From a virus (taxonomy: Duplodnaviria; Heunggongvirae; Uroviricota; Caudoviricetes), in IMG/VR virus record IMGVR_UViG_2703719347_000006, positions 1 through 42,800 of that record: a stretch of DNA of 42,800 nt. One strand, written 5' to 3'. The position numbers were made by a program, and so were the translations under genes. Numbering within the stretch: position 1 is the first letter of the stretch; each line of letters begins with the position of its first letter. A model generated the notes under the pieces. The model made no database searches and had not been told where the DNA came from. It was given only the letters and a program-made list of their open reading frames with translations. Below, piece after piece: positions 1-18,454 of this stretch.

Positions 1-1053
1 CTAGTAGTAATGGTCATAACCTCCGCTTTCTCTTCTGGCTCTGGATGCTCTCACTCGTGCTTTTCTTAACATCCTTAACAGCGGGTGGGTTTGTACTTTG
101 TTCGAGTTTATTGTCTGTGAGGATAGTAACTCCCTGCGCTCTGTCTCTGCCTCTTTGGTGACCGCTATCACTGATAAATCCCAATCGTGTTTGCTAATTA
201 ACGGTGCTTGGAACGGGGTGATTGGTGAGCGATTTATGTCTTGTCGTTTCAATGTACGCTGTATCTGTCGCTTAACTTTGTAGTTGTCTTTCCTTGATGC
301 CTGAATGGCTTTTAGTATGCGTCTTACAGCATGAAAGCCAGTGATAGAAAGTGTTTCTTTTTTTATCTCATGCCGCGCCCAGCCATTCGAATAACCCCAA
401 ACGTTGGCATCTGACCAATCATATAGGCTCTTGCTCGCCTCTCTATTAAAGTCATTTAACTTAGTTTCGGGTTTTGCCATGTAATCAATCTGTTTACCTA
501 TACACCTTGTAGGCTCTGAATATTGCTGACCTTTCAAATCTAGATCCCACTGGGGAGGAACATTTGATGGGATTGCATTGTTTGCCAGTGTTACCCATTT
601 GCTGACAATTTTGCCTGCTTGCCCATTAATGCTTCTTTCGTTCACCATAATTATTGCGTGTACATGCGGCTCTGACTGGTGTTGAGCCCACTCCATGACG
701 TAAACCCACTGATTGCCTTTCGAAGTCAACCATCTGGTAAGTGCCTTTAACGCTTTGTTGAATTTCTCTGGCGTTGTTCCCTTAACGGGTCTGAAGGTAA
801 AGGAGTAGGGGATACCACTAGTTGATTCGACATCCAGAGTAAACAAAGCTCGCCTCATTGTACGCCATTTCTTCTTTGTCCAAGCTGGTGGTATGCAGTG
901 GTTAGCCTTTGATGATTGGCGTTTATTCTCCGCCTTTAATTCATTACGTTTGTGCGTAACTGATCTCACATAAGCTAATGTGCGACCATTGATGTGATTG
1001 ATTACGGCTTGTGATTTTGTGGATAGACTCGCGTCTTTATCGTATAATTCCAT
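1..1053 (-). CDS. Rolling-circle replication initiator-like protein (HUH endonuclease motifs)
   Basis: 350-aa ORF; motifs in canonical order FTLDV (motif I), HVHAII (HUH, motif II), DYMAKP (Y-x-x-K, motif III) with about 60-aa spacing; last visible gene of the leftward integrase operon. Confidence 0.45.
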   Translation of the reverse strand: MELYDKDASLSTKSQAVINHINGRTLAYVRSVTHKRNELKAENKRQSSKANHCIPPAWTKKKWRTMRRALFTLDVESTSGIPYSFTFRPVKGTTPEKFNKALKALTRWLTSKGNQWVYVMEWAQHQSEPHVHAIIMVNERSINGQAGKIVSKWVTLANNAIPSNVPPQWDLDLKGQQYSEPTRCIGKQIDYMAKPETKLNDFNREASKSLYDWSDANVWGYSNGWARHEIKKETLSITGFHAVRRILKAIQASRKDNYKVKRQIQRTLKRQDINRSPITPFQAPLISKHDWDLSVIAVTKEAETERRELLSSQTINSNKVQTHPLLRMLRKARVRASRARRESGGYDHYY

Positions 1054-1121: not shown

Positions 1122-1508
1122 TCACAGGTATTTGGTTTCAATACCCTTGTAAACAGTTCTAAGCGTGTCTTCAGGCACTTTACCCACCAGCCCACGCAAC
1201 AACGACAACGTTATGTTTACCTTACGCAATGTCTTTACATATCTGGCGTTCGTCCTCCAGATCTTCAATGTTTCGTCTTTATCGCTGTGGTATGCTTCTA
1301 AATTGCGTTCTGTGACGTGATACGCCTCTGTTTTAAACTGCTCAACAGGAATTCCCCAATCGTTGCGTAACAGCGTTAAAACGCGACTACGTTCGTGATT
1401 TCCGGCTTTCCTTAATATGTCGTCAAACTCTTTTGGGGTAAGCTTCCTGCCACTTAGTAGGATATCGCGTATATTCGCGGCGACCTGAGAGCGTGTAAGA
1501 GTGCTCAT
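1122..1508 (-). CDS. Hypothetical protein (128 aa)
   Basis: ORF with 4-nt ATGA-type overlap with the upstream 64-aa gene (1505-1508), suggesting coupling; no recognisable motif. Confidence 0.4.
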   Translation of the reverse strand: MSTLTRSQVAANIRDILLSGRKLTPKEFDDILRKAGNHERSRVLTLLRNDWGIPVEQFKTEAYHVTERNLEAYHSDKDETLKIWRTNARYVKTLRKVNITLSLLRGLVGKVPEDTLRTVYKGIETKYL

Positions 1509-1699
1509 TTTCGTCCCCCCAGAAATCTGTCGGCAAATTGATCAAGGCTGGAGGCAAGCCACACCCGGCGCTTGCGTCCATTGATGGTCTGATTTATATA
1601 GGGAGGAAAGCTTCGGATATATCGCTTTAACTGATAGAAGCGTGACAGACAGACGCCAAGATATTCTGCTGCGTCTTTAGCGGTCAGGTAATTAATCAT
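1505..1699 (-). CDS. Small HTH DNA-binding protein (excisionase/MerR-like helix-turn-helix)
   Basis: 64-aa ORF with motif LTAKDAAEYLGVCLSRFYQL typical of HTH_17/excisionase-type DNA-binding domains. Confidence 0.4.
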   Translation of the reverse strand: MINYLTAKDAAEYLGVCLSRFYQLKRYIRSFPPYINQTINGRKRRVWLASSLDQFADRFLGGRK

Positions 1700-1780
1700 T
1701 TTATTCCCTTACTGTTGTACCAAAATGTAATATGGAGGAGACTTCCTGTCTCCCCAAATTACTCTACAATTTTTGTGCGA

Positions 1781-1972
1781 TTAAATCAGATCTATTACTA
1801 AGTAATCATCGCCAGAGGCAATGCCGATAGCTTTTCCACCGCTGGTGGATTTCACATCATAAACCCAGGTGCTGGTGCTCACCTTTTGTGGCTCTGATCT
1901 AATCAGTGCCGCGAAGGTTTCAAAATCAACATGGGTTACGTTCAGCTTTTGATTGGTAGGTTTCAACTGCAT
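1781..1972 (-). CDS. Hypothetical protein (63 aa)
   Basis: Short ORF co-oriented with neighbours; no motif recognised. Confidence 0.3.
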   Translation of the reverse strand: MQLKPTNQKLNVTHVDFETFAALIRSEPQKVSTSTWVYDVKSTSGGKAIGIASGDDYLVIDLI

Positions 1973-2020
1973 TCTTAATACCTAATAACGTATTGTTTGT
2001 ATCCTGTTTGTTTCTGTTCT

Positions 2021-2212
2021 TTAGTTACTACGCGATTCGGCTATACGTTGATCGATCCAGTCATCGATCTCGCTTTCAATAAAAGCTATTGCGCGAGCAC
2101 CAATCTTGACTGATTGGGGGAATTGTCCTCGGCTCATCAGAGCATATACCCACGCCTTGCTATAGCCAGTGCGTTTCAAAACCTCAGATAGCCGAATCAG
2201 CGACTTTTTCAT
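2021..2212 (-). CDS. AlpA-family transcriptional regulator (P4 Vis-like)
   Basis: 63-aa ORF; sequence LIRLSEVLKRTGYSKAWVYALMSRGQFPQSVKIGARAIAFIESEIDDWI matches the AlpA/Vis small HTH family pattern; downstream of a P4-type integrase. Confidence 0.6.
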   Translation of the reverse strand: MKKSLIRLSEVLKRTGYSKAWVYALMSRGQFPQSVKIGARAIAFIESEIDDWIDQRIAESRSN

Positions 2213-2368
2213 ATCTACCTCGTAATACGTTGCTTGACTATGTGAGATAGTAAATCATTGTTTTTTTAAGTTTTCTGTGAATTTGGAGAAAAAATTTTTG
2301 GGAATAGAATTACCCCAAATTGGGCGTTATTTTTTAGTTCTAACGCACAATTTGGGAACATCCTTCCT

Positions 2369-3115
2369 TTATTTTGGACGCTTTTTGGTTGCTTTTTTCT
2401 TAAATTTGGGGGCGTACTTATCCAAAGCGTTCGTTAGCAATCTCCGAAATGTATCTGGGTGGGTATCGCTGTCTTCATCGTTCCCGAATATTATGTTGTT
2501 TTCTATTACTTGGGCACTAACCCTATTGATACTAAGGTTTCCTCCACTATGGAAATCTTTGCTTGATTCAAATAAGGCAATCGCCATTCCGGCGATCATC
2601 TTTAAAGCCGTATCTTTTCCTCTCCAGTTTTGTTCTCTTTCTACTTTTTTTGACAGTGCTCCAATTTCTGGTTCGTTATCTGGAACATTCATATCCAGTT
2701 CTGGGAAGAAGTTCACAACCTCGGAGCGCTTGAAATAAAACGAATCGTAAGACCCATACCAATCATCCTCATCATCGTGATATAAAAAGTCTTCCCCTTT
2801 CCTAACGTTGAAAGTCCCTTCTTCCCCCGGTATCGGGCTCTCCCTGTATTCATGCCCCATAGCCAGAAGACCTAAAAACTCCACACACTGCTTTTCAAAG
2901 TCGTCATTAGTTGTAAAACCTGATACCCAATCGAACTGATAAAAGCCCAGCCCCCCTAAAGTATCTGGTTTAGCTTTGCTCAATCTGTAGTTACTTAAGA
3001 TAGCGGCAGCGATCATTCTTTCATTTTCATTGTTTAGTCTTGCCAGTTCGCTGATCAGATTACCAAACCAGATTTTATCTTCTGACTCGTTATAAAACGC
3101 ATCTAGTCCTGTCAT
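2369..3115 (-). CDS. Acidic hypothetical protein with basic C-terminal tail, translationally coupled to integrase
   Basis: ATG at 3115-3113 lies 1 nt after the integrase TAA stop (3119-3117); 248 aa from this ATG (ORF track gives a GTG start at 3124); D/E-rich core, C-terminal KFKKKATKKRPK; AT-rich by eye. Confidence 0.5.
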   Translation of the reverse strand: MTGLDAFYNESEDKIWFGNLISELARLNNENERMIAAAILSNYRLSKAKPDTLGGLGFYQFDWVSGFTTNDDFEKQCVEFLGLLAMGHEYRESPIPGEEGTFNVRKGEDFLYHDDEDDWYGSYDSFYFKRSEVVNFFPELDMNVPDNEPEIGALSKKVEREQNWRGKDTALKMIAGMAIALFESSKDFHSGGNLSINRVSAQVIENNIIFGNDEDSDTHPDTFRRLLTNALDKYAPKFKKKATKKRPK

Positions 3116-3116
3116 C

Positions 3117-4403
3117 TTAGTCACGGCGTGTTCTCCTTCCGAACTCGTAAGGGCTTATATGTATTTCTCGATTGGCGTCCAGATAATCTGCCCACCATTG
3201 AAGCATTAGTTTGCGCTCTTCTAAGTAATCAGCCTTGTGCTTGTAGGCTCTTTTAACGTCTTTATATTCTTTGTGGCTCATCTGGCGCTCTACTGCGTCC
3301 TCCTGCCACAAACCGGACTCCATCAGGGAACTACAGGCTGTGGCACGGAATCCATGTCCAGTTACGTCCTCTTGCGTGTTATAGCCCATTAAGCGTAATG
3401 CCTTGTTTACCGTGTTTTCACTCATCACGCCTTTGGTGTTTCTTTCATTCGGAAACACAACATCGTAGCTTCCGCTTAGTTCTCTCAACTGCTTTACAAT
3501 AGAAACAGCCTGACGGCTAAGAAGCACGATATGTTCGTCTTTTCCCGTTTTTGTGCCACGGGTGGAAAACCTCACACCATCGATAGGCTCTCTTTTTTTA
3601 GGGATAATCCACTCAGCCCGATCAAGGTCAAACTCTTTCCAACGGGCAAACCTTAACTCGCTTGAACGAACAAATGTCAACATGGTTAGCTCAATGGCAA
3701 GGCGGGTAAGAGGATTACCTTTAAAGCTGCCCAATCGAGTGAAAAAGTCTGGTAAATCTCTGGGATGTAGTGCGGCATGATGCTTAGTTTCATATTGCAT
3801 TAACCGGACATCGAGATCATTCGTGATGATTTCTGTCTTAATGCCGCTCAGACGGGCGCTATGTATGATGTCCTTAACTCGTTGTTTAAGTCGGTTGGCT
3901 GTATCGTGTTTCCCGGCGTCATCTACCTTCTTAAACAAAGGTAAAATTGTCATCGCCTCCAGTTTGCGAATATCCGAAGTGCCAATGTGAGGGAAAATAT
4001 ACATTTCAAGGCTTCTAAGTACGCGTTTTCGTTGGTCTTCGTTCCACATCTGGTGGCTTTCAACCCATTGACGTCCTATTGTCTCAAAAGTGAATGCGCC
4101 TTTTTCTTCTGCTTTTGCTGCTCTTTGCTCTGCTTTGGGATCTATCCCCTTGACTAACAACTTTTTGGCGTTGTCTCGTTTTTCTCTGGCGTCTTGTAAG
4201 CTAATGGTTGGATATACACCAAAAGCAAGTCTGTCTTCTTTCTTATCTGATGGGCGGCGATACTTCATTCGCCAATACTTCGACCCGGTCTGGGATACTT
4301 CAAGATAAAGACCACCACCATCAGACAATTTATAAGTTTTGTCTCGTGGCTTAGCTGCTTTGCACTGACGGTCTGTTAATTTGTTGAGGGTATTTCTGGA
4401 CAT
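3117..4403 (-). CDS. int: Tyrosine integrase, P4-type (arm-binding N-terminal domain)
   Basis: 428-aa ORF; N-terminus KLSDGGGLYLEVSQTGSKYWRMKYR typical of P4/CP4-57-type integrases; C-terminal catalytic region with HGFR...Y. Confidence 0.85.
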   Translation of the reverse strand: MSRNTLNKLTDRQCKAAKPRDKTYKLSDGGGLYLEVSQTGSKYWRMKYRRPSDKKEDRLAFGVYPTISLQDAREKRDNAKKLLVKGIDPKAEQRAAKAEEKGAFTFETIGRQWVESHQMWNEDQRKRVLRSLEMYIFPHIGTSDIRKLEAMTILPLFKKVDDAGKHDTANRLKQRVKDIIHSARLSGIKTEIITNDLDVRLMQYETKHHAALHPRDLPDFFTRLGSFKGNPLTRLAIELTMLTFVRSSELRFARWKEFDLDRAEWIIPKKREPIDGVRFSTRGTKTGKDEHIVLLSRQAVSIVKQLRELSGSYDVVFPNERNTKGVMSENTVNKALRLMGYNTQEDVTGHGFRATACSSLMESGLWQEDAVERQMSHKEYKDVKRAYKHKADYLEERKLMLQWWADYLDANREIHISPYEFGRRTRRD

Positions 4404-4935: not shown

Positions 4936-5232
4936 TCAGTCATTACTGATAGCGCCAAAGCGTGAGCGGTAATTACGCAGGCGCGGGTCGATATATTCAG
5001 GGAAGTGGGTATATGTGGCTTTGCGGAATGGTCGGATTGATGTCTGGTAAATTCGCTCGCGTTCTTGTTTCTCTGCAAGCCATATACAATGGCGAAATTC
5101 CTTTTCCTCTTTCGTTTCCTGCGGTAGCGACATTATCCGGTCGTAGTTTTTCCTGAATTTATCCAGCACCTCCGATACGGAATTGCCGGAACAGCGGCGC
5201 GGGTCATCTGCACCATACTGAGGCGCTGGCAT
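4936..5232 (-). CDS. Hypothetical early protein (98 aa)
   Basis: ATG at 5232 preceded by AGGAG-type RBS; directly downstream of ssb in the leftward operon. Confidence 0.45.
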   Translation of the reverse strand: MPAPQYGADDPRRCSGNSVSEVLDKFRKNYDRIMSLPQETKEEKEFRHCIWLAEKQERERIYQTSIRPFRKATYTHFPEYIDPRLRNYRSRFGAISND

Positions 5233-6559: not shown

Positions 6560-6718
6560 TTATGGCGATACCAGAGAGCTTTCTGCGTGTACATGCGTCT
6601 CTGTAACTTGCTCTCCTTCACTGTGGTTGCAAGTGACATGAATATCTCCTTCGTTACCGATTAATTCTTTCATCTGACGAATGAATTCTTCGTCTGACCA
6701 GTTATCTGTAAAACTCAT
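6560..6718 (-). CDS. Hypothetical small early protein (52 aa)
   Basis: ATG overlaps the TGA of the upstream Kil-like ORF (ATGA at 6715-6718); AGGA RBS; not in the ORF track because under 60 aa. Confidence 0.3.
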   Translation of the reverse strand: MSFTDNWSDEEFIRQMKELIGNEGDIHVTCNHSEGEQVTETHVHAESSLVSP

Positions 6719-6867
6719 TTCCTGCGATACCATGGAAGGTTGATAGCTGATTTCATCGCTTTATTTGCTTCAAGCCACATTTTTGAATCACCAATAAATC
6801 TGGCTATTACTGCTTTGTTTTGTGCTGCACGAAGCATCTGGTGATTGATGGCTATTTCATTGCGCAT
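6715..6867 (-). CDS. Kil-like small protein
   Basis: 50-aa ORF; segment AVIARFIGDSKMWLEANKAMK resembles lambda Kil as recalled; start overlaps stop of the cIII-like ORF. Confidence 0.4.
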   Translation of the reverse strand: MRNEIAINHQMLRAAQNKAVIARFIGDSKMWLEANKAMKSAINLPWYRRK

Positions 6868-7211: not shown

Positions 7212-7835
7212 CTATGCGGCCTCGGAAGGAAGTCCAATCATCTTATTCAAATCTTCTACCCGTAAAGCAGGAAGTGCTGTACTTGCTTTATCTGCTTCTT
7301 CTGGTAGCAATTCTTTGCTTTCAGGCCAAACTTCAATAAGTCGCTTAACTGTTGTGACTGAGTTCAAAGCAGCCCATACATTTGATTCGATATCCTTTTT
7401 CTTGGCTTCAAGTTTTTGTTGCAATGCGCAGATTTCATCAAACCTTTTTGTTATTTCGTGTTCTGCGCTAAACATGCATTTATCTTTGGTCGGAGTAGGG
7501 AGCAATATATCTTCGCCGTTGCCGTCTTTCCCATATGAATGCCATCCAACCCTTCTGCCAGATACAGTCAGATAAATTGAAGTAGAACTAACATCGTATG
7601 AGTAAAATGAACATCCCATCTTTTCAAGTTCTTCACTTATAGCTACCAACTTGGATGATAACTGATCCACTTCCTCAGTTTTCTTTTTACCGCCAAACGC
7701 AATAACTCTGGCGTCAAGTGCAAGCTGGTTCTTTAACTTTGTTACTTCTTTAAGTTCAGTGAAAACCCCAGACTTAATTAAAGCGTTACGAGCGATTTCC
7801 TCTTTCATTCTCGTAGTTAAGCGGATTGATGACAT
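7212..7835 (-). CDS. Hypothetical early-left protein (207 aa)
   Basis: ATG at 7835 with GAGGA RBS, 11 nt after the N stop; the track's TTG start at 7895 would overlap N and is rejected. Confidence 0.5.
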   Translation of the reverse strand: MSSIRLTTRMKEEIARNALIKSGVFTELKEVTKLKNQLALDARVIAFGGKKKTEEVDQLSSKLVAISEELEKMGCSFYSYDVSSTSIYLTVSGRRVGWHSYGKDGNGEDILLPTPTKDKCMFSAEHEITKRFDEICALQQKLEAKKKDIESNVWAALNSVTTVKRLIEVWPESKELLPEEADKASTALPALRVEDLNKMIGLPSEAA

Positions 7836-8575: not shown

Positions 8576-9622
8576 TCACTCTGGTTCGCTGGGGAATATA
8601 TTTATCAATTGCCCTGTTGAAATGTGCCCATTTTCTACAACCTCTAGGTATGAAATTTCAACAGTTGATTCTTTGGCTACAGCATTCAAAAACTCAAGAA
8701 GCTCATCAGTAGATGTTATGTCGGCTGAGGTCTTTATGGTGAAAGATTCACCATTTGAAACCCTTATGACGTCAATATTTATGTCCTGATTTGTTTCTCC
8801 CGAGCGACGAACGCCCGTGACATAAAAGTTATCTCTTCTAGTTTCCTTTTTTCGATCAATTGATTGTCTTTGGTTTAAGGTATTCAACTGTTCTCTATTT
8901 ACCACTCTCTGACCAATTGTTACCCTCTCAACTGACGAGTCTTGAGCAAGCTTTTTAAGCAACTTGCTTTTACCATCCTCGCCGTGAGCCAGAACCTCTC
9001 TGCTAATGTTTGTTTGACCGCTAATCAACAACTTGAGCACATTGTCTTGTGCTTCGTTTACCGCTTTGGTGCTTTTTTCCACCAATTGCACCTGAGAATC
9101 TTGGTTATGTCGCTGTGTTTCGTAGTACTCATTGATCCACTTATAGCCTACCGTGCTGGCAGCTAAGACGATAGCGGCGACGGCGCATAGTGCTTGCCTT
9201 CCTGTCATTTTGCCTATCGCTTGAGTAAACACTGTCACCACTCCGTTTACAATCGGATCTGAGTCACCATCCGCTTGGCTTGAGCCTTCGCTTATTCGGT
9301 AGACAATATCCAGCAAACCTTTCTCTGCATCTTTTAGCTTCTGCCGATTATGAGTGCTGTGACTGACTACCGTAAATGCTTTTTGTATTTCATGCGTAAG
9401 CTCTGCCATACCAAAAAGCATTGACGCAGTCAATGAAGAATTATATCTATTTGGATCGCCTTTTACATTAATATTGATCTTTGGCCATCCACTGAAAACT
9501 ACGTTAGGGAATGTGAAGTCGCTTGAGTCGATGTCCTTCCTTCCGAGCATTTCTGTTACAAAAGATACAAAGTCGTCTTCTGACTTGATAACATATTGCG
9601 CAGGTTGATCAATCGCTGACAT
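8576..9622 (-). CDS. Membrane protein of unknown function in the rexAB position (candidate lysogen-expressed exclusion protein)
   Basis: 348-aa ORF; ATG 25 nt after the cI stop with AAGGA RBS; one predicted TM segment ALCAVAAIVLAASTVGYKWI followed by a coiled-coil-like stretch; AT-rich by eye; terminator immediately downstream. Confidence 0.7.
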   Translation of the reverse strand: MSAIDQPAQYVIKSEDDFVSFVTEMLGRKDIDSSDFTFPNVVFSGWPKININVKGDPNRYNSSLTASMLFGMAELTHEIQKAFTVVSHSTHNRQKLKDAEKGLLDIVYRISEGSSQADGDSDPIVNGVVTVFTQAIGKMTGRQALCAVAAIVLAASTVGYKWINEYYETQRHNQDSQVQLVEKSTKAVNEAQDNVLKLLISGQTNISREVLAHGEDGKSKLLKKLAQDSSVERVTIGQRVVNREQLNTLNQRQSIDRKKETRRDNFYVTGVRRSGETNQDINIDVIRVSNGESFTIKTSADITSTDELLEFLNAVAKESTVEISYLEVVENGHISTGQLINIFPSEPE

Positions 9623-9647: not shown

Positions 9648-10307
9648 TCACCCAAACGTCTCTTCTGGCCACTGGCTGGCGATAACTTTCCCTACAACGG
9701 AACAGCTATCATTGCATGGGATCATTGGATATTGCGGGTTTAGTGGTTGTAGGAACACCTGACCGCTATCCCTGATCAGTTTCTTGAAGGTAAACTCGTC
9801 ACCACCAAGTCTGGCTATGCAGAAATCACCTGGCTCAACAGCCTGCTCAGGGTCAACGAGAATTAACATCCCGTCAGGAAAGCTTGGCTTGGATCCTGTT
9901 GGTGCGGTCATGGAATTACCTTCAACTTCAAGCCAGAACGCACAATCACTGGCTTTTTTGGTTGTGCTGACCCATCTCTCCGCATCACCTTTCGTAAAGG
10001 TTCTAAGCTCAGGCGAGAACATCCCGGCCTGAACATGAGAAAAAACAGGGTACTCATATTGTTTTTTAACGGGGGCAGATGAGTATTCGCCAACAGGTGA
10101 AAATGTACCGTCGTGGTTGAATGAGACGTTATCAATACCAAGGTATTTAAACACCACACCAATCTCGTCAAGAGATGGATGACGAGATCCGCGCAACCAG
10201 TGACCAATTCCACCCTGCGTCATACCAAGCTCTTCAGCTAACTTCTCTTGAGTTATGCCGAGCTCTTTCATTCTGGATCTAGCCAGTTCATACCATTTCA
10301 TTTTCAT
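9648..10307 (-). CDS. cI: cI-type prophage repressor (HTH N-terminal domain, LexA-like S24 C-terminal domain)
   Basis: C-terminal half [21 protein letters not shown]...[15 protein letters not shown]...FTFKKL matches lambda cI as recalled; N-terminal HTH differs; start at 10307 or 10301 preferred because the track start 10370 falls inside the pR -35. Confidence 0.85.
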
Positions 10308-10316
10308 ACCCTTATT

Positions 10317-10331
10317 ATTACGCTCTGTACT
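10317..10331. promoter_or_regulatory. Putative operator site (oR, cI-proximal)
   Basis: ATTACGCTCTGTACT shares the 13-mer TACG-N5-GTACT with sites at 8447-8459 and 10377-10389. Confidence 0.45.
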
Positions 10332-10364
10332 AAAACCATCCACGCACAAGATGTATTTTTTTGT

Positions 10365-10393
10365 TTGCATTCTAAAAGTACATATCGTATTAT
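10365..10393 (+). promoter_or_regulatory. Putative pR promoter with embedded operator
   Basis: -35 TTGCAT (10365-10370), 17-nt spacer, -10 TATTAT (10388-10393); operator-like 13-mer at 10377-10389 lies in the spacer. Confidence 0.5.
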
Positions 10394-15587: not shown

Positions 15588-16236
15588 TGGCAGCAAATAC
15601 CGAAATATTTGGGTAGTTGGCGATCTGCACGGATGCTACACGAACCTGATGAAAAAACTGGAGACGATAGGATTCGACACCAAAAAAGACCTGCTTATCT
15701 CGGTTGGCGATTTGGTCGATCGCGGTACAGAGAACGTCGAATGTCTGGAATTAATCACATTCCCCTGGTTCAGAGCTGTACGTGGAAACCATGAGCAAAT
15801 GATGATTGATGGCTTATCAGAGCGCGGAAACGTCAATCACTGGCTGTTTAATGGCGGTGGCTGGTTCTTTAATCTCGATTACGACAAAGAAATTCTGGCT
15901 AAAGCTCTTGCCCATAAAGCAGATGAACTTCCGTTAATCATCGAACTGGTGAGCGAAGGTAAAAAATATGTCATCTGCCACGCCGATTATCCTTGTGACG
16001 AATACGAATTTGGAAAGCCAGTTGATCATCAGCAGGTAATCTGGAACCGCGAACGAATCAGCAACTCACAAGACGGGATCGTGAAAGAAATCAAAGGAGC
16101 TGACACGTTCATCTTTGGTCATACGCCAGCAGTGAAACTACTCAAGTTTGCCAACCAGATGTATATCGATACCGGCGCAGTGTTCTGCGGAAACCTCACA
16201 TTGATTCAGGTACAGGGAGAAGGCGCGTGGGCATAA
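15565..16236 (+). CDS. ninI: Ser/Thr protein phosphatase (lambda PPase / NinI-like)
   Basis: Start at internal ATG 15565 (MRYYERIDG...); metallophosphatase motifs GDLHG, GDLVDRG, GNHE. Confidence 0.85.
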
Positions 16237-16745
16237 GAGAACTAAACCTCACCAAAGAGCAGCACGAGTGGCTGAATGGCTGGCTTGAACTGTGGGGCGC
16301 ATGGGTTTATTCAGGTCGTCTGGAAAAGCGCATGAGCAGCGTAATAGCGAAGTTCATGGAGAGCGTAGAGCCGGGAAGAGTTATGACAAGGCCAATGTGC
16401 AATGATGATGATGGAATGTTGATTTCTCAGGTCGTCGATTCCGTCATGTACATTGACAAGAAAGCCTTTGGCATCCTCCTCAGCTACTACGCTCATGGTT
16501 CATCTAAGCGAGCAATTGCATCCTACTATCACGCGACTGCAAAGCCACGCAAGATGTGTGGACGTGGTGGCGAGGGATGGAGAAAACCTTCACTGGCAAC
16601 CTGTAGAAACGAAATTGACGACATCCTGAAAGCGTCATTATTTGTTTTATACCAGCCAATGCAAAATGCTTTCAAAATGCGTAAACGTGTTGAGAAAGTT
16701 AAGCATGTTGCCGTTAAAAGCCTTGACATGCAATTAGCCATTTAG
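16227..16745 (+). CDS. Late-gene antiterminator Q-like protein
   Basis: 172-aa ORF (GTG start with GGAGAAGG RBS) in the Q position between nin genes and the late promoter; Cys-containing; not lambda-Q-like in sequence. Confidence 0.5.
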
Positions 16746-16752
16746 CCATAAT
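16723..16752 (+). promoter_or_regulatory. Putative late promoter pR'
   Basis: -35 TTGACA (16723-16728), 18-nt spacer, -10 CATAAT (16747-16752), overlapping the 3' end of the Q-like gene. Confidence 0.45.
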
Positions 16753-16762
16753 TAGAGGGTAA

Positions 16763-16805
16763 GCTGCCGTTAGTGACTCTTAAGTTGCAACGGTGGCTTT
16801 TTTTA
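16763..16805 (+). terminator. Putative tR'-like terminator
   Basis: Imperfect 9-bp stem gctgccgtt (16763-16771) / aacggtggc (16789-16797) with a long loop, followed by a T-run 16798-16805. Confidence 0.35.
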
Positions 16806-16808
16806 TTT

Positions 16809-16883
16809 GGGTCAGTCGTATAAAGGTCATTACGGAAGGCTGTTAACCTTCTTATCGTGGTTCGAGTCCACGCTGTCCCGCCA
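16809..16883 (+). tRNA. tRNA-Asn (anticodon GUU), by manual cloverleaf folding
   Basis: 75 nt: acceptor gggtcag/ctgtccc (one mismatch), anticodon stem gaagg/ccttc, loop ctGTTaa, T-arm cgtgg-TTCGAGT-ccacg, discriminator g and CCA. Confidence 0.6.
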
Positions 16884-16888
16884 AATAT

Positions 16889-16964
16889 GCTGGTTTAGCT
16901 CCAATGGTAGAGCAGTCGCCTTGTAAGCGAATGGGTAGCGGTTCAAGTCCGTTAACCAGCACCA
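16889..16964 (+). tRNA. tRNA-Thr (anticodon UGU), by manual cloverleaf folding
   Basis: 76 nt: acceptor gctggtt/aaccagc, D-arm gctc/gagc with GG in loop, anticodon loop ctTGTaa, T-arm agcgg-TTCAAGT-ccgtt, discriminator a and CCA. Confidence 0.7.
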
Positions 16965-17206
16965 TAACTGAGCCGTAGCCACTGGCTATCCTGAATTCAT
17001 CAGTGATAGTTACGCTGCGGCATTCTACGCATGACCTTCGTGAAAGCGGGTGGCATGAGGTTGCCCTAACAACCTCCTGCCGTTTTGCCCGTGCATATCG
17101 GTCACGAACAAATCTGATTACTAAACACAGTAGCCTGGATTTGTTCTATCAGTAATCGACCTTATTCCTAATTAAATAGAGCAAATCCCCTTATTGGGGG
17201 TAAGAC

Positions 17207-17530
17207 ATGAAGATGCCAGAAAAAAATGACCTGTTAGCCGCCATTCTAGCGGCAAAGGAACAAGGCATCGGGGCAATCCTTGCGTTTGCAATGGCGTACC
17301 TTCGCGGCAGATATAATGGTGGTGCGTTTACAAAAACAGTAATCGACGCAACGATGTGCGCCATTATCGCCTGGTTCATTCGTGACCTTCTCGGCTTCGC
17401 CGGACTAAGTAGCAATCTCGCTTATATAACGAGCGTGTTCATCGGCTACATCGGTACTGACTCGATTGGTTCGCTTATCAAACGCTTCGCTGCTAAAAAA
17501 GCCGGAGTAGAAGATGGTGGAAATCAATAA
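17207..17530 (+). CDS. S: Holin S (class I, dual-start MKM)
   Basis: 107-aa [25 protein letters not shown]... matching lambda S as recalled. Confidence 0.9.
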
Positions 17531-17990
17531 TCAACGTAAGGCGTTCCTCGATATGCTGGCATGGTCAGAGGGAACTGATAACGGACGTCAGAAAACCAGA
17601 AATCATGGTTATGACGTCATTGTAGGAGGAGAGCTATTCACTGATTACTCCGATCACCCTCGCAAACTTGTCACGCTAAACCCAAAACTCAAATCAACAG
17701 CAGCCGGACGTTACCAGCTTCTTTCCCGTTGGTGGGATTCCTATCGTAAGCAGCTTGGCCTGAAAGACTTCTCTCCGAAAAGCCAGGACGCTGTGGCATT
17801 GCAGCAGATTAAAGAGCGTGGCGCTTTACCGATGATTGATCGCGGTGATATTCGTCAGGCTATCGACCGTTGCAGCAATATCTGGGCTTCACTGCCGGGC
17901 GCTGGTTATGGTCAGTTCGAGCATAAGGCTGACAGCCTGATTGCAAAATTCAAAGAAGCAGGCGGAACGGTCAGAGAGATTGAGGTATGA
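17514..17990 (+). CDS. R: Endolysin R (lytic transglycosylase)
   Basis: 158-aa ORF matching lambda R as recalled. Confidence 0.9.
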
Positions 17991-18454
17991 GCAGGGTCAC
18001 CGCGATTATCTCCGCTCTGGTTATCTGCATCATCGTCTGCCTGTCATGGGCTGTTAATCATTACCGTGATAACGCCATCGCCTACAAAGAACAGCGTGAT
18101 AAAAAAGCCAGTGAGCTGAAGCAGGCGACCGCCACCATTACTGACATGCAGCAGCGCCAGCGTTCTGCTGATGCACTCGATGCTAAATACACGAAGGAGT
18201 TAGCTGATGCGAAAGCTGAAAATGATGCTCTTCGGCGCAAGCTTGATAATGGTGGTCGGGTGTTCGTCAAAGGAAAATGCCCTGTGCCATCCTCAGCCGA
18301 AACCTCCAGCGCCTCCGGCATGGGCAATGATGCCACCGTCGAACTCTCTCCAGTTGCTGGACGAAACGTTCTCGGTATCCGGGACGGAATTATCCGCGAC
18401 CAAACAGCACTGAGAACGCTTCAGGAATACATCAGGACGCAATGCCTGAAATAA
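17987..18454 (+). CDS. Rz: i-spanin Rz
   Basis: 155-aa ORF with N-terminal TM segment and coiled-coil periplasmic domain. Confidence 0.85.
18207..18413 (+). CDS. Rz1: o-spanin Rz1 (lipoprotein embedded in Rz in the +1 frame)
   Basis: Signal peptide with lipobox VVGC and proline-rich [11 protein letters not shown]; wholly inside Rz. Confidence 0.8.

Follow-up and report, generated by a model that had tools for sequence, protein, structure and literature searches.

What is a pair of transfer RNA (tRNA) genes doing between the late antiterminator gene and the lysis genes of a temperate phage? The question is raised by IMG/VR virus record IMGVR_UViG_2703719347_000006, of which positions 1 to 42,800 were analysed (this whole stretch of 42,800 nucleotides (nt) is referred to here as the window), and in which a gene for tRNA-Asn(GUU) lies next to one for tRNA-Thr(UGU). 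The Asn/Thr pair is already known and is an ordinary annotated feature, not a new kind of element; it is its function that calls for an explanation. We consider it probable that the cassette mainly supplies nuclease-resistant substitutes for host tRNAs, with the decoding of ACA codons being helped as well. This replacement role has been shown experimentally for a phage tRNA-Thr(UGU) judged to be identical in sequence, and it would extend to the tRNA-Asn on the strength of sequence features. The cassette is composed as follows.

16809 to 16883, plus strand: tRNA-Asn(GUU), 75 nt, with encoded CCA and G73 (ARAGORN anticodon gtt and Rfam RF00005)
16884 to 16888, plus strand: spacer AATAT, 5 nt between tRNA-Asn and tRNA-Thr
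16889 to 16964, plus strand: tRNA-Thr(UGU), 76 nt, with encoded CCA and A73 (ARAGORN anticodon tgt and Rfam RF00005)

Both are functional tRNA genes. They lie on the plus strand, are the sole ARAGORN calls across the 42.8-kb window and belong to the Rfam tRNA family RF00005, scoring above its curated threshold in cmscan (bit scores of 55.3 for tRNA-Asn and 61.5 for tRNA-Thr against a gathering score of 29), with E-values over the whole window of 2.3e-9 and 4.6e-11, respectively. The features taken to define this family were a four-helix cloverleaf, an anticodon loop of 7 nt in which U33 is present and position 37 is a purine, the GG of the D loop and a TTCRA T loop. The tRNA-Asn has the anticodon loop CUGUUAA and the discriminator G73 ahead of its CCA end, while the tRNA-Thr has the acceptor stem GCUGGUU/AACCAGC, the anticodon loop CUUGUAA and the 3′ end A73-CCA. 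The initial annotation, which was based on manual folding, had proposed two cloverleaves 5 nt apart with anticodons GUU (Asn) and UGU (Thr); ARAGORN and Rfam agree with it, ARAGORN calling both genes with the anticodon assignments unchanged. The one acceptor-stem and one D-stem mismatch which it placed in tRNA-Asn correspond to U4·U69 and U13·U22, these being the non-standard pairs in the cmscan alignment. Absent from its description is the mismatch G27·A43, seen in the cmscan alignment as the uppermost pair of the tRNA-Thr anticodon stem, which leaves this tRNA with an anticodon stem of 4 base pairs (bp). Further marks of the tRNA-Thr are G1:C72, C2:G71, U28:A42 and C14.

Folding of the single sequences by minimum free energy gave modest z-scores (-1.7) and folds that are partly non-cloverleaf; the evidence of covariance models and covariation was preferred over this approach. 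No RNA family besides the two tRNAs was found when positions 16600-17300 were scanned against Rfam with a permissive E-value. In E. coli, asparaginyl-tRNA synthetase (AsnRS) recognizes an identity set made up of the anticodon G34-U35-U36 and the discriminator G73, and that of threonyl-tRNA synthetase (ThrRS) consists of G1:C72, C2:G71, G35 and U36. The identity set of the tRNA-Asn(GUU) isoacceptor is present in the window tRNA-Asn, as is that of the tRNA-Thr(UGU) isoacceptor in the window tRNA-Thr, and charging of the two by AsnRS and ThrRS is predicted.

Natural variants of the cassette were obtained from IMG/VR viral contigs by two scans, each anchored on one of the tRNAs, which returned 120 loci each (the two sets overlapping) and from which 20 distinct variants per tRNA were taken. 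Among these, pairs 6:67, 7:66 and 28:42 of tRNA-Asn have changed on both sides, as have pairs 3:70, 5:68, 6:67, 49:65 and 51:63 of tRNA-Thr. The covariation score is 0.138 for tRNA-Asn (shuffled mean 0.060) and 0.152 for tRNA-Thr (shuffled mean 0.077), with none of 500 shuffles reaching the observed value in either case, and 90-95% of the cells are paired under the cloverleaf against 22-53% in controls with slid partners. Covariation among natural variants supports both cloverleaves. The mismatches are conserved features and not decay, with U13·U22 of tRNA-Asn and G27·A43 of tRNA-Thr being unpaired in 20/20 variants and position 4:69 of tRNA-Asn in 18/20, while U28:A42 of tRNA-Thr is invariant, as are its G1:C72 and C2:G71. 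Both genes are under selection as tRNAs. Position 14 of the tRNA-Thr (window 16902) is also unusual, in that it is C instead of the near-universal A14 that pairs with U8; it is never A in the 20 variants, being mostly C and otherwise T or G. The two tRNAs occur together in 104 of the 120 Asn-anchored loci and in 117 of the 120 Thr-anchored ones, and in some cassettes they are joined by extra tRNAs, namely Phe(GAA), Arg(UCU) or Gly(UCC). With respect to tRNA-Lys, none was found by ARAGORN in the window and none in the viral-contig cassettes of the Asn-anchored and Thr-anchored scans (120 loci each). The spacer reads AACAT 45 times and AATAT 43 times among the viral contigs.

The cassette is identical to that of phage HK446 (NC_019714) over 156/156 nt, spacer included, and it matches those of phage 21 (AJ237660) and Sf6 (AF547987) over 155/156 nt, the sole difference lying in the spacer, which is AACAT there. 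Base for base, neither tRNA differs from its counterpart in phages 21, Sf6 and HK446, and they have the same place in the late leader of the window as in these phages, after tR′ and before the holin gene. The region is common to 97 phage records, and the cassette is present, with PGAP tRNA annotations, in 369 of 5,426 complete E. coli genomes (about 7%). Record AF547987 of Sf6 labels its tRNA-Asn and tRNA-Thr as 'similar to phage 21', and the same tandem pair was described downstream of Q in SfI, Sf6, ST64T, PS3 and phage 21 (SfI paper, 2013). In the HK446 record (NC_019714.1, 35097-35252) both tRNA genes are present with no tRNA annotated. A single Thr(UGU) tRNA is ascribed to HK446 in the 2026 Old preprint, in which the adjacent tRNA-Asn is not mentioned.

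Evidence for the replacement role comes from the P2 Old nuclease. Phage Thr(UGU) tRNAs rescue cells from P2 Old by replacing the cleaved host tRNA-ThrU, and the tRNA of phage 21 ('tRNA-Thr21') both protects against P2 Old and resists cleavage (Govande et al., NAR). This tRNA was described as having a shorter anticodon stem and the changes C28U/G42A (Govande et al., NAR), and in the published Old system a change of the anticodon in the rescue tRNA abolishes protection. A July 2026 preprint reports, independently, that HK97, HK542 and Bas34, phages sensitive to Old, receive 'strong counter-defense' from the Thr(UGU) of HK446, and that E. coli tRNA-ThrU does not provide it. The tRNA-Thr of the window has all three of the anti-Old sequence features, these being the anticodon of the host target, loss of the paired C28-N-G30/C40-N-G42 motif (UCG/CGA for CUG/CAG) and a short stem. 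Its anticodon stem is GUCGC/GCGAA with G27·A43, U28:A42 and no CNG on either strand, where the stem of host thrU is ACUGA/UCAGU, with CUG and CAG.

The role of the partner tRNA-Asn has been called 'not clear' in the literature. Host tRNA-Asn(GUU) is also cleaved by Old, more slowly than tRNA-ThrU, and AriB, the nuclease of PARIS, cuts Thr(UGU) as a prime target, along with Lys(UUU), and Asn(GUU) with lower efficiency (Belukhina et al., 2025); Thr(UGU) and Asn(GUU) are targets that the Old/PARIS-type enzymes share. AriB cuts between positions 40 and 41 within U36-A-A-U39-C40|N41, and in tRNA-Lys its cleavage is abolished by U39A and impaired by U16C (Belukhina et al., 2025). The T5 versions of the Lys, Thr and Asn tRNAs jointly neutralise PARIS (Belukhina et al., 2025). 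The paired CNG motif and U36-A-A-U39-C40 are found in thrU as well as asnT of the host, asnT having CGG/CCG and UAAUCC. At these sites the window tRNA-Asn has AAG/CUU, with A28:U42 and no CNG, and UAACCU, with C39, and in this it can be likened to the T5 tRNAs validated as rescuers, from all of which U39 and a paired CNG are absent. Over the AriB-site region, the window sequences are UAACCU (Asn) and UAAGCG (Thr) against UAAUCC and UAAUCA in the host, and position 16 is A in both window tRNAs. These substitutions are consistent with resistance, although weakly so, as most unrelated tRNAs differ there too. The unusual D loop of the tRNA-Thr may also matter, AriB being modelled as contacting D-loop positions 16-17.

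The genes and signals around the cassette bear on when the tRNAs would be made.

16227 to 16745, plus strand: late antiterminator Q of the phage 21 type, 172-amino-acid (aa) open reading frame (ORF) with matches to Q21 structures
16723 to 16752, plus strand: late promoter pR′, TTGACA-18-CATAAT, sigma-70-like with 11/12 matches, overlapping the 3′ end of Q
16759 to 16808, plus strand: late leader RNA with the qut region and the intrinsic terminator tR′, 50 nt, hairpin and U-tract
17207 to 18454, plus strand: lambda-type lysis cassette, with which the late genes begin after the tRNAs (S 17207-17530, R 17514-17990, Rz 17987-18454)

Residues 1-162 of the Q ORF match the solved Q21 structures 6JNX and 6P18 (E-value about 1e-92), and the homologue in Sf6 carries the annotation 'similar to phage 21 Q'. 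The promoter pR′ lies where late promoters are annotated in phage 21 (AJ237660) and Sf6, and the late leader is the counterpart of the 50-nt 'aRNA' of phage 21 and of the 'qut' and 'tR′' features of Sf6. The tR′ hairpin has a folding energy of -20.2 kcal/mol (z-score -5.4) and is followed by UUUUUUUAUUU, with the last U of the U-tract directly adjoining G1 of the tRNA-Asn. Homologues of S, R and Rz in Sf6 are annotated as holin, endolysin and Rz. The location assigned to the tRNAs in the initial annotation, downstream of pR′ and flanked by a Q-like gene and the lysis cassette, is upheld. As to the cargo it mentions, the interval from the tRNAs to the S gene holds no cargo gene.

From this arrangement we infer that the tRNAs are expressed as the first part of the late operon, through Q-dependent read-through of tR′. 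RNA polymerase starting at pR′ would reach them solely after antitermination of the Q21 type, and RNase P together with 3′ processing would excise both from the late transcript; for such tRNAs, it was stated that excision from the late mRNA as against expression from a promoter of their own is not known (phage L paper, 2020). Once charged by AsnRS and ThrRS, as their identity elements predict, they would replace host tRNAs destroyed by abortive-infection nucleases of the ABC-ATPase/Toprim kind. The tRNA-Thr, being resistant to cleavage, would restore the decoding of ACA, while the tRNA-Asn would act as a substitute for host Asn(GUU), the secondary target of AriB that is also cleaved by Old.

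Two further genes of the prophage provide context for this reading.

4936 to 5232, minus strand: Abc2 anti-RecBCD protein (Pfam PF11043, E-value 5e-60), 94% identical to HK446 gp30
6560 to 6733, minus strand: homologue of Gp33 (HK75/HK446), the reported trigger of P2 Old (tblastn, 88% identity over 52/56 aa), with an intact ORF of 57 aa

Gp33 is sufficient to trigger Old (2026 preprint), and tblastn gave no match in the window to Oad2 (HK446 gp27), an inhibitor of Old. With the trigger present and Oad2 absent, we infer that the window has no known anti-Old device besides the cassette. A wider proposal can be built on this, which we put forward tentatively and, taken as a whole, with some doubt. 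In it the tRNA-Asn would form the second half of a minimal two-tRNA cassette against tRNases of the Old/PARIS type; the structural oddities of the pair (U4·U69 and U13·U22 in Asn, C14 and G27·A43 in Thr) would reflect evasion of nucleases and not decay; and prophages which carry Gp33 and lack Oad2 would depend on the cassette alone for making late proteins in hosts bearing P2 or P4.

A number of points weigh against the replacement role. The identity of the window tRNA-Thr with the tested tRNA-Thr21 is taken from AJ237660 and from the features described, the NAR text having no printed sequence. All of the rescue experiments used plasmid-expressed tRNA and not a phage late operon, and expression late in infection may come too late against a nuclease that is triggered early. 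Neither lambda nor cells deficient in recB were rescued from Old by a single viral Thr(UGU) (2026 preprint). The case of the tRNA-Asn is further burdened in that its anticodon stem has the full 5 bp, which leaves it with 2/3 of the anti-Old features, and in that C28:G42, restoring the paired CNG, is found in 8/20 Asn variants, including those of the Klebsiella phages Mulock and 2b LV-2017. In addition, Old depletes five tRNAs by more than 2-fold, and Asn(GUU) is not one of these (2026 preprint). Since the cassettes of the window and of the two scans are without tRNA-Lys(UUU), the principal target of AriB, PARIS would not be fully neutralised by them. Phage P1, which has an Asn-Thr(UGU) pair of its own, keeps UAAUCA in its tRNA-Asn and the paired CNG in its tRNA-Thr. 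Lastly, two viral contigs have a chimeric tRNA-Thr with a host-type anticodon arm, in which the Old and AriB motifs are restored.

This chimeric tRNA-Thr, found in two IMG/VR contigs (at 1359-1434 in one of them) and followed by a tRNA-Gly(UCC), has a phage-type sequence over its 5′ 25 nt, including C14, while its anticodon arm, T arm and 3′ acceptor strand match those of host thrU exactly or almost so. By its sequence, it looks like the product of gene conversion with the host gene. Another IMG/VR contig has an Asn-type tRNA body in which U35A gives the anticodon GAU, called as tRNA-Ile by ARAGORN; a natural switch of anticodon may explain this, as may an error in sequencing. Expanded cassettes occupy the same slot in Klebsiella phage Mulock (401-720 of the examined locus) and at several IMG/VR loci, an example being Asn-Phe(GAA)-Thr-Arg(UCU), sometimes with the addition of Gly(UCC). 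The last of these is among the tRNAs depleted by Old (2026 preprint). In Salmonella phage L (481-552 of the examined locus), and also in ST64T and ST160, the Thr slot is taken by a 72-nt tRNA-like sequence with a Thr-like acceptor stem, a CCA end and an aberrant anticodon arm. In phage L it is annotated as tRNA-Leu(TAA), and it receives no ARAGORN call; it may be a decayed or a non-canonical tRNA.

The alternative that survives best, and one that we still regard as rather unlikely, is pure codon supplementation, whereby the tRNAs would raise the supply for codons favoured by the phage and so speed up late protein synthesis. For the comparison of codons, genes were called alike in the window and in a 50-kb sample of K-12. 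ACA, a codon read by no anticodon but UGU, makes up 15.1 of every 1000 codons of the window and 5.5 of every 1000 in the K-12 sample, a 2.7-fold enrichment (odds ratio 2.8, p 4e-15) which makes it the fourth most enriched codon. The same bias was found in the SfI paper (17.3% vs 7.1%), and AAC accounts for 24/25 Asn codons in the capsid gene of phage L (phage L paper). In addition, tRNA-ThrU is the only reader of ACA in E. coli. However, ACA is more frequent in early genes (19.3 per 1000), whose translation precedes the action of Q, than in the late ones (12.6 per 1000), and the putative major capsid ORF uses it for just 1 of its 21 Thr codons. Asn codons are barely enriched (47.7 against 37.3 per 1000 in the K-12 sample, odds ratio 1.29), and AGG, AGA and AUA, which are 3.5- to 6-fold enriched in the window, are served by no phage tRNA. 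The suggestion in the initial annotation that the tRNAs may serve the codons of late genes or cargo is partly supported. Furthermore, overexpressed E. coli tRNA-ThrU gives little or no protection against Old whereas phage versions protect, and so the sequence of the tRNA matters besides its dose; the invariant G27·A43 and U28:A42 of tRNA-Thr are likewise left unexplained by supplementation. Supplementation is plausible for Thr, and it leaves the presence of Asn and the choice of these two tRNAs unaccounted for. An aid to ACA decoding from the extra tRNA-Thr is compatible with counter-defence as a side benefit of it: the loss of tRNA-ThrU hits a phage harder if its genes have much ACA, and the supplementation and replacement roles are therefore compatible.

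It is highly improbable, in our view, that the pair is an RNA-processing or recombination element or a hitch-hiking relic, providing entry sites for RNase P/E or marking a module junction, with decoding being incidental. The tRNA-Asn does begin right at the end of the tR′ U-tract. The homology of the window with HK446 (16799-18103, 97.9%), where Q, pR′ and tR′ are of the lambda type, starts within this U-tract at 16799, and the cassette therefore marks a module boundary. The tRNA-like sequence without an ARAGORN call in the Thr slot of the ST64T/L lineage would also suit a relic. Against this, conservation extends to the anticodons, identity elements, CCA ends and the T and D loops, and there is covariation in the stems, a rescue tRNA with a changed anticodon no longer protects in the published system, and P22 and lambda manage without a tRNA at this position.

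That the tRNAs compensate for a host tRNA gene disrupted by prophage integration, as offered for HK446 in the 2026 Old preprint, has in its favour that many temperate phages integrate into tRNA genes and that HK446 and SfI do so at thrW, but it is so improbable that it can be set aside, as the isoacceptor encoded by thrW is not Thr(UGU) and the gene is rebuilt by attP when the phage integrates, the window has no other tRNA and, for remnants of host thrU, asnT and thrT, only chance-level matches of 13-14 nt or less, the cassette is internal, beside the lysis genes and behind a terminator that should silence its expression in the lysogen, and the same cassette occurs in phages with different integrases. 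A further idea was rejected. As for self-immunity against a tRNA nuclease or defence of the prophage itself, PADLOC gave no significant matches among ten accessory ORFs, and Pfam and PHROGs nothing suggestive.

A few other genes of the window deserve mention. Immediately downstream of the CI-like repressor (9648-10370) there is an ORF of 348 aa (8576-9622, minus strand), at a site that in lambdoid prophages is occupied by genes expressed in the lysogen, rexAB for example. Neither Pfam nor PADLOC gave a match for it, its only match being PHROG 6191, to which no function is assigned there, and it is a candidate for a lysogeny-expressed accessory gene. The early-left operon has, adjoining the N-like antiterminator, a gene (7212-7835, minus strand) for a protein with a full-length Nmad5 domain ('nucleotide modification associated domain 5', E-value 1e-71). 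The integrase lies at 3117-4403. Beyond it (1-1053, minus strand, and 1122-3115) there is an ORF with a REP_ORF2-G2P replication-initiator domain, detected with an E-value of 8e-7 that is barely above the Pfam threshold; this ORF has a strong match to PHROG 30534, extends past the edge of the window and may be part of a second mobile element beside the prophage.

To return to the supply of nuclease-resistant tRNAs, the cassette offers a worked example of temperate-phage tRNAs that were long put down to codon usage and are better explained by counter-defence. The pair has been annotated for years (Sf6 record AF547987; SfI paper, 2013; phage L paper, 2020), while the function of the Thr member was tested in 2025-2026. 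The tRNA-Asn, unmentioned in the 2026 HK446 study, matches a secondary target of the same nuclease family. With the cassette being carried by the above share of complete E. coli genomes, it could have a widespread effect on competition among prophages, in which lambdoid phages face Old and PARIS borne by P2/P4.

Among known systems, phage 21 and Sf6 are the closest in context, as their Q21-type Q, pR′ and leader match those of the window and the slot of the cassette between tR′ and the holin gene is shared. HK446 differs in that the cassette stands behind a lambda-type Q, pR′ and tR′, unlike the Q21 type of the window, and its virion is HK97-like. In Sf6 and BTP1 the module goes with a P22-like virion. 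In the window, the cassette is joined to a SEN34-like late region of the contractile-tail type, neither lambda-like nor P22-like. Positions 17001-42000 resemble the contractile-tailed phage vB_EcoM-689R2 (94.8% identity over 65% of the query) and Salmonella phage SEN34, and the module of Q21, tRNAs and SRRz is therefore combined here with a third type of virion.

A similar late-leader slot is used in the Stx-converting lambdoid phages of the 933W type, which carry the tRNA genes ileZ-argN-argO between Q and stx. Codon supplementation fits these tRNAs, as the codons that they read, AUA, AGA and AGG, are rare. Their anticodons differ from those of the window pair, and AUA, AGA and AGG are the codons most enriched in the window and yet uncovered.

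Phage P1 has Asn and Thr(UGU) tRNA genes in the same order, adjacent to each other and 2 nt apart. Its tRNA-Asn is only 59% identical to that of the window, pointing to a separate origin, while its tRNA-Thr is 83% identical; the context also differs, the P1 pair lying downstream of dmt. The finding of an unrelated tRNA-Asn beside Thr(UGU), in the same order, suggests that the pairing is functional and goes beyond inherited linkage.

The remaining comparison is with the rescue tRNAs of virulent phages, namely the Lys, Thr and Asn tRNAs of T5 acting against AriB of PARIS and the Thr(UGU) tRNAs of T4, T5, Bas32 and Bas33 acting against P2 Old. Their sequences are unrelated to those of the window beyond general tRNA features. 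The setting is different too, as T5 has a large array of tRNA genes, whereas the window has just two, in the late operon of a temperate phage and without Lys(UUU). Like the window pair, however, the rescue tRNAs of the virulent phages have the anticodons of the host targets and are without U39 and the paired CNG, most of them also having a weakened anticodon stem.

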